From the sequence record MH719082.1: a stretch of 64,000 bases of DNA; one strand, written 5' to 3'. Below the pieces are notes generated by a model. That model saw nothing but the letters and a program-made list of their open reading frames with translations. It searched no databases and had not been told where the DNA came from. Position numbers and translations under genes: made by a program. The stretch comes from Escherichia phage vB_EcoM_IME392. Positions 26,726 through 27,301 of this stretch are shown piece by piece; the first letter of the stretch is position 1; every line of letters starts with the position of its first letter.

Positions 26726-27301
26726 TTAACTTTAGGATGACCTCTTAGCTTACCATCGCGAAAGCTACATGGAGTGTAGTTAACGTGAACTAAGAGGTCA
26801 TCATAAAATCAGTTACTGACGAATTATACTTTCCCAACCATCCACATATACTGCGTTGGCTATGTAAAGAATGCAGAACAAGCCAACGATTAAAGGATTA
26901 ATCATTGTACTTCTCCATTTAATTAAGTTACCTGCTTACTGTTACAGGGACGCCGTTCGTCGCGCCAGATTACCAATTGGCGTATTAAGCCAATCTCGCC
27001 AACCGCGTAACGCCATTGGCTGGTATCACATAGGCTTGTAGCCCTCAGTCAACCTATCCTGAGGATGAAGATCAGATACTCTCTAACGGCGGGATTGATA
27101 GTCCCAGAGTACGATCTCTTTGCCATTCTCGTATGACCTAGGAGACGACTGCCCTGGTTAAGGAGACCAGACAGCTGATATGGTTTAGTTTATTTTTAAT
27201 TTGAGTCCCACTCATACCTTACAGACTCAAGCACTGCAGACCACCATGAAGCCGACTCGTACGCTAACAGTCGACACCACGGATCCATGAAACTCCAACA
27301 A

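Follow-up and report, generated by a model that had tools for sequence, protein, structure and literature searches.

In the genome of Escherichia phage vB_EcoM_IME392, a long perfect inverted repeat lies immediately upstream of a tRNA-Arg gene, which raises the question of what such an element does there: the sequence-only reading that singled it out had proposed a structure for precursor processing, a protein-binding site or part of another small RNA. Here, we examine this question in a 64,000-nt stretch of the phage genome (MH719082.1; hereafter the window, position 1 being its first letter) and in related genomes. The phage belongs to a lineage of rare and poorly studied coliphages. The DNA polymerase of this lineage resembles those of phages with hypermodified thymidine (PMC12686479).

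Hairpin C and its genomic setting

The repeat, hereafter element C, sits in a region of about 2 kb without convincing ORFs (25420-27450), in which a tRNA-Met and a tRNA-Arg are accompanied by clustered perfect inverted repeats (A, B, D, and C). ARAGORN and Rfam call only two tRNAs near C, at 26105-26180 and 26650-26725, both on the minus strand, as are the flanking ORFs up to about 29.2 kb; a large terminase gene on the plus strand (29827-31653) is 99.5% identical to its counterpart in Escherichia phage EP_H11. A terminator scan found no terminator-like site on either strand in 25100-27700, which, together with the shared minus-strand orientation of the ORFs and both tRNAs, makes their co-transcription plausible. 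Perfect inverted repeats of at least 11 bp number 11 in the window when 2.1 are expected, and four of these 11 fall inside 26189-26802. The neighborhood of C is a run of stem-closed modules. The features discussed below are the following:

26189-26282: repeat element A, with a 12-bp stem
26324-26394: repeat element B, with an 11-bp stem
26425-26571: repeat element D, with a stem of about 21 bp
26650-26725, minus strand: tRNA-Arg(TCT), the downstream neighbor of C (ARAGORN; Rfam RF00005, 71.3 bits)
26726-26735, minus strand: 3' strand of the predicted outer stem of C, CTAAAGTTAA, at the same time the 10-nt 5' leader of tRNA-Arg
26736-26748, minus strand: 3' arm of C, CTAAGAGGTCATC, perfect in the window as in L133 and L134; EP_H11 has AGGGTGCAC instead
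26749-26789, minus strand: 41-nt loop of C, with a predicted inner hairpin and the motif CGATGGTAAG (26749-26758), common to element A
26790-26802, minus strand: 5' arm of C, GATGACCTCTTAG, part of the perfect repeat and the same in L133, L134, and EP_H11
26803-26812, minus strand: 5' strand of the predicted outer stem, CTGATTTTAT, beginning directly after the stop codon of the small ORF
26813-26905, minus strand: small hydrophobic ORF of 30 aa, MINPLIVGLFCILYIANAVYVDGWESIIRQ (ORF listing), whose stop codon abuts the hairpin
27522-28064: DenV-like ORF, 100% identical to an IME392 protein over 90% of its length

The perfect 13-bp repeat reported from the sequence alone is indeed present, its arms reading GATGACCTCTTAG at 26736-26748 and CTAAGAGGTCATC at 26790-26802 in the letters as presented. 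It had been described as enclosing about 45 nt with a 5-bp hairpin: such a hairpin is predicted in the loop (CTACA at 26775-26779 with TGTAG at 26765-26769), and the enclosed length is 41 nt. Likewise, the proposed span of 26735-26807 points to the right locus, starts 1 nt early and at its other end takes in part of an imperfect outward extension, which a repeat search delimits as 23-nt arms with 87% complementarity (26731-26753 and 26785-26807). The placement just 5' of tRNA-Arg on the minus strand was correct, since the 3' arm stops 10 nt upstream of the +1 position of this tRNA as delimited by ARAGORN and Rfam.

C is the longest perfect inverted repeat of the 64-kb window. Under Markov shuffling, perfect repeats of at least 13 bp arise at 0.105 per window, with one or more in 9.5% of the shuffles. 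As an 87-nt minus-strand RNA, C has a predicted folding energy of -34.7 kcal/mol (z = -6.0), a stability reached by 0 of 200 shuffled sequences. The hairpin measures 67 nt, or about 87 nt when its AU-rich outer stem is counted, in which 26803-26812 would pair with 26726-26735 through 8 bp, two of them G-U; the predicted helix thus amounts to about 22 bp (8 outer bp, one mismatch, and 13 bp) and ends one base short of the tRNA. G-U asymmetry gives no clear strand: in each lineage, the fold of one strand is about as good as that of the other, the plus strand being slightly better in EP_H11. The arm sequence is found at one locus in the window and at one place in EP_H11. By eye, the 5' arm resembles the 3' end of 16S rRNA (the anti-Shine-Dalgarno sequence) and the 3' arm a Shine-Dalgarno sequence, the latter being followed by no start codon in the window.

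Hairpin C among related phages

To this window we compared four related genomes: the Logan assemblies L133 (SRR26903504) and L134 (SRR33788027), phage EP_H11, and L138, a 113-kb ENA contig. In L133, which is 98% identical to the window and collinear with it, C is identical. In L134, which is about 85% identical, both arms are perfect and the loop differs by one extra T and 0 substitutions, whereas 40-nt windows in the flanks of C are only 60-82% identical and the sequence downstream is unrelated. EP_H11 keeps the 5' arm and the loop (with one 1-nt deletion), and its altered 3' arm, AGGGTGCAC, costs the inner stem most of its pairs. However, its outer stem is a perfect 11-bp inverted repeat (TTAATTTTATG/CATAAAATTAA) that ends at position -1 of a tRNA-Gly: all four non-Watson-Crick positions of the outer stem of the window are Watson-Crick in EP_H11, and none of the outer pairs is lost, which implies that the closing helix of C is kept there by different nucleotides. 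The EP_H11 fold is nonetheless weaker (-21.8 kcal/mol, z = -1.3), with shorter predicted helices split by unpaired bases inside the 11-bp repeat. Finally, L138 has neither C, the small ORF, tRNA-Arg nor D; at its "empty site," ...AGCAGGATATTTTAAC is joined directly to element B (the left flank being given as ...CCTGTAACAGTAAGCAGGATATTTTAAC), from which it follows that C is dispensable.

RNAalifold reports compensatory changes in 0 of the 35 predicted pairs of C, an absence of covariation that follows from the arms being invariant in three of the four lineages that carry the element. Around C, identity forms a mosaic in which islands of 95-100% lie beside blocks of 60-80%; with such islands nearby, the high identity of C could come from recent recombination and not from selection.

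The neighbors of C change from one lineage to another. Downstream of it stands tRNA-Arg in the window and L133, a 67-aa CxxC ORF in L134 (assigned to PHROG 6060, "antitermination Q-like"), and tRNA-Gly in EP_H11. Because the downstream partner varies in this way, the adjacency to tRNA-Arg is incidental, and the link to this tRNA that the first reading implied is not supported; the apparent association is an accident of cassette order. The commonest companion of C is instead the 30-aa ORF that ends just upstream, its stop codon falling exactly at the start of the outer stem in the window, L133, and L134, that is, in three of the four lineages with C. This ORF has 33 aa in L134, where its substitutions are conservative, which suggests from sequence that it is translated; it is mostly deleted in EP_H11 and absent from L138. 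The 30-aa peptide has no family match, and the ORF is not annotated in EP_H11.

Beyond these genomes, C had no match in 5,426 Escherichia coli genomes, IMG/VR, JGI metagenomes, or GTDB genomes and was found in the IME392-like lineage only; a 14-mer scan returned, among the matches listed, chance matches only. The large terminase has no close relative in IMG/VR, and the DenV-like ORF finds there only distant phages, none with a similar tRNA region beside the gene. A terminase 57-59% identical to this one is found in Acinetobacter phage Ab1-TPeters and Ralstonia phage RP13, neither of which has annotated tRNA genes within 7 kb on either side of the terminase gene.

Known elements and the possible role of C

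Several known kinds of element were compared with C and set aside. As a tRNA or degenerate tRNA (7-bp acceptor stem, T-arm GTTCRANYC, anticodon arm), it receives no call from ARAGORN or Rfam and contains no T-loop motif. As a member of an Rfam family, including ribozymes, GOLLD/ROOL, Drum, and Y-RNA-like RNAs, it has no match at the gathering threshold or at E <= 5 apart from chance or noise, the sole relaxed match on C itself being a chance one to a miRNA model (E = 0.16). An intrinsic terminator is excluded by the lack of a U-tract, the stem being followed by CCTAAAGTTAA on the minus strand and by ATAAAATCAG on the plus strand. C does not behave as a paralog of element A either: with filters off, the covariance model of A (R1) gives the minus strand of C 11.5 bits and the plus strand 10.4 bits and aligns the closing stem only, and C has none of the invariant blocks of A (GTCATGCC, AAAGAC, and TGGTAAGGTACTCCA), except for GATGGTAAG, which includes the TGGTAAG of the block. 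The two elements do have CGATGGTAAG(G/C)TA in common, and GATGGTAAG occurs only twice in the window, in A and in C, both times on the minus strand. Homology to rnaD of T4 was judged by the conserved core of that RNA (a 5' CCGGGTCGCTACCGG hairpin and a 3' ATCACAGCAGAAACGGCGCACC) and was rejected: the lone match, of 20/24 nt, lies on the T4 side largely in a segment that varies among rnaD homologs, and we treat it as chance. A multicopy repeat (REP/BIME, MITE, or PeSL-type cassette) or a host-derived or mobile element would not be confined to a single locus with no match in the databases searched. As for an integron attC site (RYYYAAC ... GTTRRRY), the GTTAAGC beside the tRNA fits the R' box and is not conserved (ATTAAGC in EP_H11, none in L134), there is no RYYYAAC partner, and no integrase was seen among the ORFs sampled. 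Lastly, the local alignment between C and the element upstream of the tRNA-Arg of EP_H11 is not significant.

The closest likenesses are to RNA processing structures. In coliphages T7 and T3, the R sites are intercistronic hairpins processed by RNase III. Like these sites and the precursor of the T4 tRNA cluster, C offers a helix of about two turns, irregular in EP_H11, between cistrons and beside tRNA genes, and after its cleavage the upstream RNA would end in a 3' hairpin; its modeled helix (8 bp, 1 mismatch, and 13 bp) has the length of largely double-stranded RNA, about 20-22 bp or two helical turns, that RNase III would need. Unlike the T7 sites, to which it has no sequence similarity, C has a large (41 nt) and sequence-conserved loop and is optional within its own lineage, and its cleavage is putative. 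REP-type stabilizers, the MALAT1-mascRNA pair, and mitochondrial tRNA punctuation exemplify protective 3' structures or 3' ends defined by RNase P. By an analogy of mechanism only, C resembles these systems in being a stable structure directly upstream of a tRNA, where 5' processing of the tRNA would set the 3' end of the upstream RNA and the structure would then block 3'-to-5' exonucleases; REP elements, however, are multicopy host repeats, whereas C is single-copy and without a match in E. coli genomes, and in L134 an ORF, not a tRNA, comes after C. With the small structured non-tRNA RNAs of T4 (species 1 and 2, rnaC and rnaD), C shares its orientation and its position adjoining a tRNA-Arg(UCU), but the T4 order is tRNA-Arg, rnaD, and rnaC, so that C lies upstream and not downstream of the tRNA, and it has neither a CCA-like 3' end nor a T-arm. 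In T4, tRNA maturation is reported to involve RNase III of E. coli (PMC4810235). RNase E, for its part, reportedly needs an adjacent structured unit to cut tRNA precursors, for which a simple stem-loop can substitute (PMC9841416); in C, similarly, a stem-loop is separated from the tRNA by a short single-stranded spacer rich in A and U (CCUAAAGUUAA), with the difference that this spacer is base-paired if the outer stem forms.

We tentatively favor, with a probability of about 0.4, the reading that C belongs to an optional cassette and serves as a hairpin of about 22 bp that punctuates RNA; it would guide processing and shield the 3' end of the RNA upstream of it. According to this reading, the variable tRNA/small-RNA region of IME392-like coliphages would contain an optional "small ORF + hairpin" cassette that includes C, and a long minus-strand precursor would carry the small ORF, C, the tRNAs, and other stem-closed RNAs. 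Within this precursor, C would fold into a helix of about 22 bp capped by the structured 41-nt loop and would thus provide a landmark for host endonucleases, the candidate cuts being those of RNase III within the helix, of RNase E in an AU-rich spacer next to a structured element, and of RNase P at the +1 position of the tRNA. After a cut, the upstream RNA would keep an exonuclease-resistant hairpin at its 3' end, and C would also insulate the folding of the sequence after it. That the hairpin is functional is argued by its stability, by its being an island of conservation and by the rescue of helix closure in EP_H11, and its position points to a role where the RNA of the small ORF meets the sequence that follows. 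From the observed fold stability, conservation, closing helix, position, and variable neighbors, we infer the transcription of C, its strand, its cleavage and its stabilizing effect. The precursor-processing structure first suggested is best supported in the form of a punctuating or processing RNA, given its position, stability, and conservation, and loses its tie to tRNA-Arg: C is probably an RNA processing or stability structure that is not specific to this tRNA. On its own, it would matter little, being, if the punctuation reading is true, one more case of the phage punctuation of long tRNA/mRNA precursors.

A pure stability hairpin does not explain a 41-nt loop without substitutions. Another reading is that C is an autonomous small RNA of about 67-87 nt, freed by RNase P at the tRNA +1 and by an upstream cut, whose conserved loop would work through its sequence, for instance by binding a protein, by sponging or regulating another RNA, or as a decoy. 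We consider this unlikely. Both the loop and the 5' arm are indeed free of substitutions across lineages that are 85-91% identical overall, the neighboring A and B are stem-closed RNAs conserved in unrelated phages (A with 11 covarying pairs of 31), the tRNA cluster of T4 encodes the stable non-tRNA RNAs rnaC and rnaD, and the motif CGATGGTAAGsTA is common to C and A, a similarity scored as high by 5 of 500 shuffles. However, C is confined to a single rare lineage and L138 does without it, neither an Rfam match nor a target or partner was found, what the covariance model of A sees in it is a generic stem, and EP_H11 tolerates a scrambled 3' arm. A broader form of this idea, which we hold to be unlikely, is that C, A, B, and D would all be stem-closed small RNAs carried as shuffleable cassettes in phage tRNA arrays and freed by the tRNA-processing machinery, C being the lineage-specific one, whose loop would bind a host or phage factor (for instance as an anti-defense decoy or as a regulator of the hydrophobic peptide) and would not be mere punctuation.

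That C acts as DNA, whether by marking a junction of recombination or of cassettes, by forming a cruciform or a palindrome that binds protein, or by housing a plus-strand promoter antisense to the small ORF, we regard as quite unlikely. Gene content diverges right after C in every lineage, L138 displays an "empty site," C folds symmetrically on both strands and it contains a sigma-70-like sequence (TTAACG-18-TAAAAT, 26780-26809, plus strand) that points antisense into the small ORF; yet sites of this score (9/12) are at chance frequency (3 found, 3.4 expected), C is single-copy and does not recur at other cassette borders, its half-sites are 41 bp apart, and no recombinase or integrase context was seen. 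The changes in the outer stem of EP_H11 likewise favor selection for a helix, though a helix could also matter in single-stranded DNA. Those same changes, all four of which restore pairing, weigh against C being a functionless relic, that is, an old insertion or decayed RNA gene whose identity would stem from recent recombinational exchange, as does the persistence of a perfect 13-bp stem and an intact 41-nt loop where the adjacent coding sequence is 60-80% identical; this too appears quite unlikely to us, even if C is dispensable in L138 and degraded in EP_H11, the region mixes blocks of 95-100% with blocks of 60-80%, and covariation is lacking. Finally, C could be the regulatory 3' part of a small-ORF module, either a 3'-UTR hairpin or part of a type I toxin-antitoxin-like system, with an incidental link to the tRNA. 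The hairpin starts right after the ORF stop in the window, L133, and L134, both are absent from L138, EP_H11 combines a mostly deleted ORF with a damaged inner stem, and the peptide encoded at 26813-26905, kept in L134, is short and hydrophobic like type I toxins, which makes it a putative toxin from its sequence. This reading is nevertheless very improbable in our view: the peptide matches no family, the evidence for an antisense RNA amounts to the one 9/12 plus-strand site of chance-frequency class, with no terminator found, a weak Rfam match to Sib (E = 4.8) is noise, and the loop of EP_H11 is intact despite the lost ORF.

Other elements of the non-coding region

Elements A and B are more notable than C, being conserved across unrelated phages and absent from Rfam. 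Across the tRNA/small-RNA region, Rfam recognizes only tRNAs at the gathering threshold, and a relaxed scan (E <= 5) adds no family. Located 8 nt upstream of tRNA-Met, element A (26185-26286, minus strand) is an RNA of about 100 nt in which a 12-bp stem closes over two inner hairpins. Its conservation extends from EP_H11, L133, L134, and L138 to the N4-like Erwinia phage phiEaP8, which is unrelated (L002 1505-1606, directly after a tRNA-Tyr), and to the IMG/VR contigs L145 and L161; in the first four sequences compared, 11 of its 31 pairs covary, and its invariant blocks GTCATGCC, AAAGAC, and TGGTAAGGTACTCCA are set in a three-helix fold. With no Rfam match, it looks like an undescribed phage RNA family. 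Element B (26285-26419, minus strand) is a rod-like RNA of about 135 nt, whose 3' end is tRNA-like, with ACCA after the 7-bp terminal stem (CGGGATC/GATCCCG), and whose inner stem is the perfect 11-bp repeat of 26324-26394; it has no Rfam match, and partial matches to it lie in the tRNA array of Kuttervirus SenALZ1 (L003 1501-1552) and in the T4-like Yersinia phage JC221 (L004 1501-1588). In L138, element B contains a run of about 17 G (6236-6252), which is probably an assembly or sequencing artifact of this metagenome contig. Element D (26425-26571), found only in the window and L133, consists of a stem of about 21 bp with one bulged C around some 104 nt and lies about 75 nt downstream of tRNA-Arg; in the equivalent position, EP_H11 has a short palindromic hairpin beside its tRNA-Arg, with 16-nt arms that are 88% complementary (L001 5043-5074).

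The region as a whole is cassette-like (window 26431-26927 versus L138 6130-6145): the window, L134, and EP_H11 have the same flanks and differ in the sets and orders of their modules, and a TTTTAAC-containing sequence recurs at the cassette junctions. This non-coding locus of about 2 kb, in which stem-closed RNAs are gained, lost, and reordered between near-identical phages, is a compact system for asking what non-tRNA RNAs do in phage tRNA clusters, a question that dates back to the species 1 and 2 RNAs of T4.

Further tRNA-related sequences occur in and beyond the window. Downstream of tRNA-Met, in 25915-26104 (minus strand), the T-arm motif GGTTCGAYTCC occurs twice in perfect form, at 25937-25947 and at 26078-26088, together with a ...GTGGCACCA end; neither ARAGORN nor Rfam calls a tRNA at these motifs, which may be tRNA-like RNAs or tRNA remnants. 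EP_H11 carries at L001 5394-5478 (minus strand) a tRNA with an insertion of about 13 nt in its anticodon arm, detected by Rfam (52 bits) with neither an ARAGORN call nor an annotation, which has no counterpart in the window and a T-arm exactly the same as that of the window tRNA-Arg.

The non-coding sequence of about 400 nt that precedes the small ORF (26930-27300, minus strand) contains blocks that are 90-100% conserved in all four relatives, such as TTGAGTCTGTAAGGTATGAGTGGGACTCAAATTAAAAATAAAC at about 27185-27230, and may hold further structured RNAs or regulatory sites. Moreover, an intergenic repeat of about 40 nt (CTCTTTTG..GTCGAAAGGCTGTTAAAGTG, minus strand) occurs at 25772-25806, 27294-27333, 27477-27516, 27535-27574, and 28138-28184. 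By comparison with the promoter/stem-loop cassettes of T4-type phages, these repeats may be regulatory and phage-specific; a hairpin of about 20 bp is formed by the copy at 27298-27341, and EP_H11, L134, and L138 have the motif as well.
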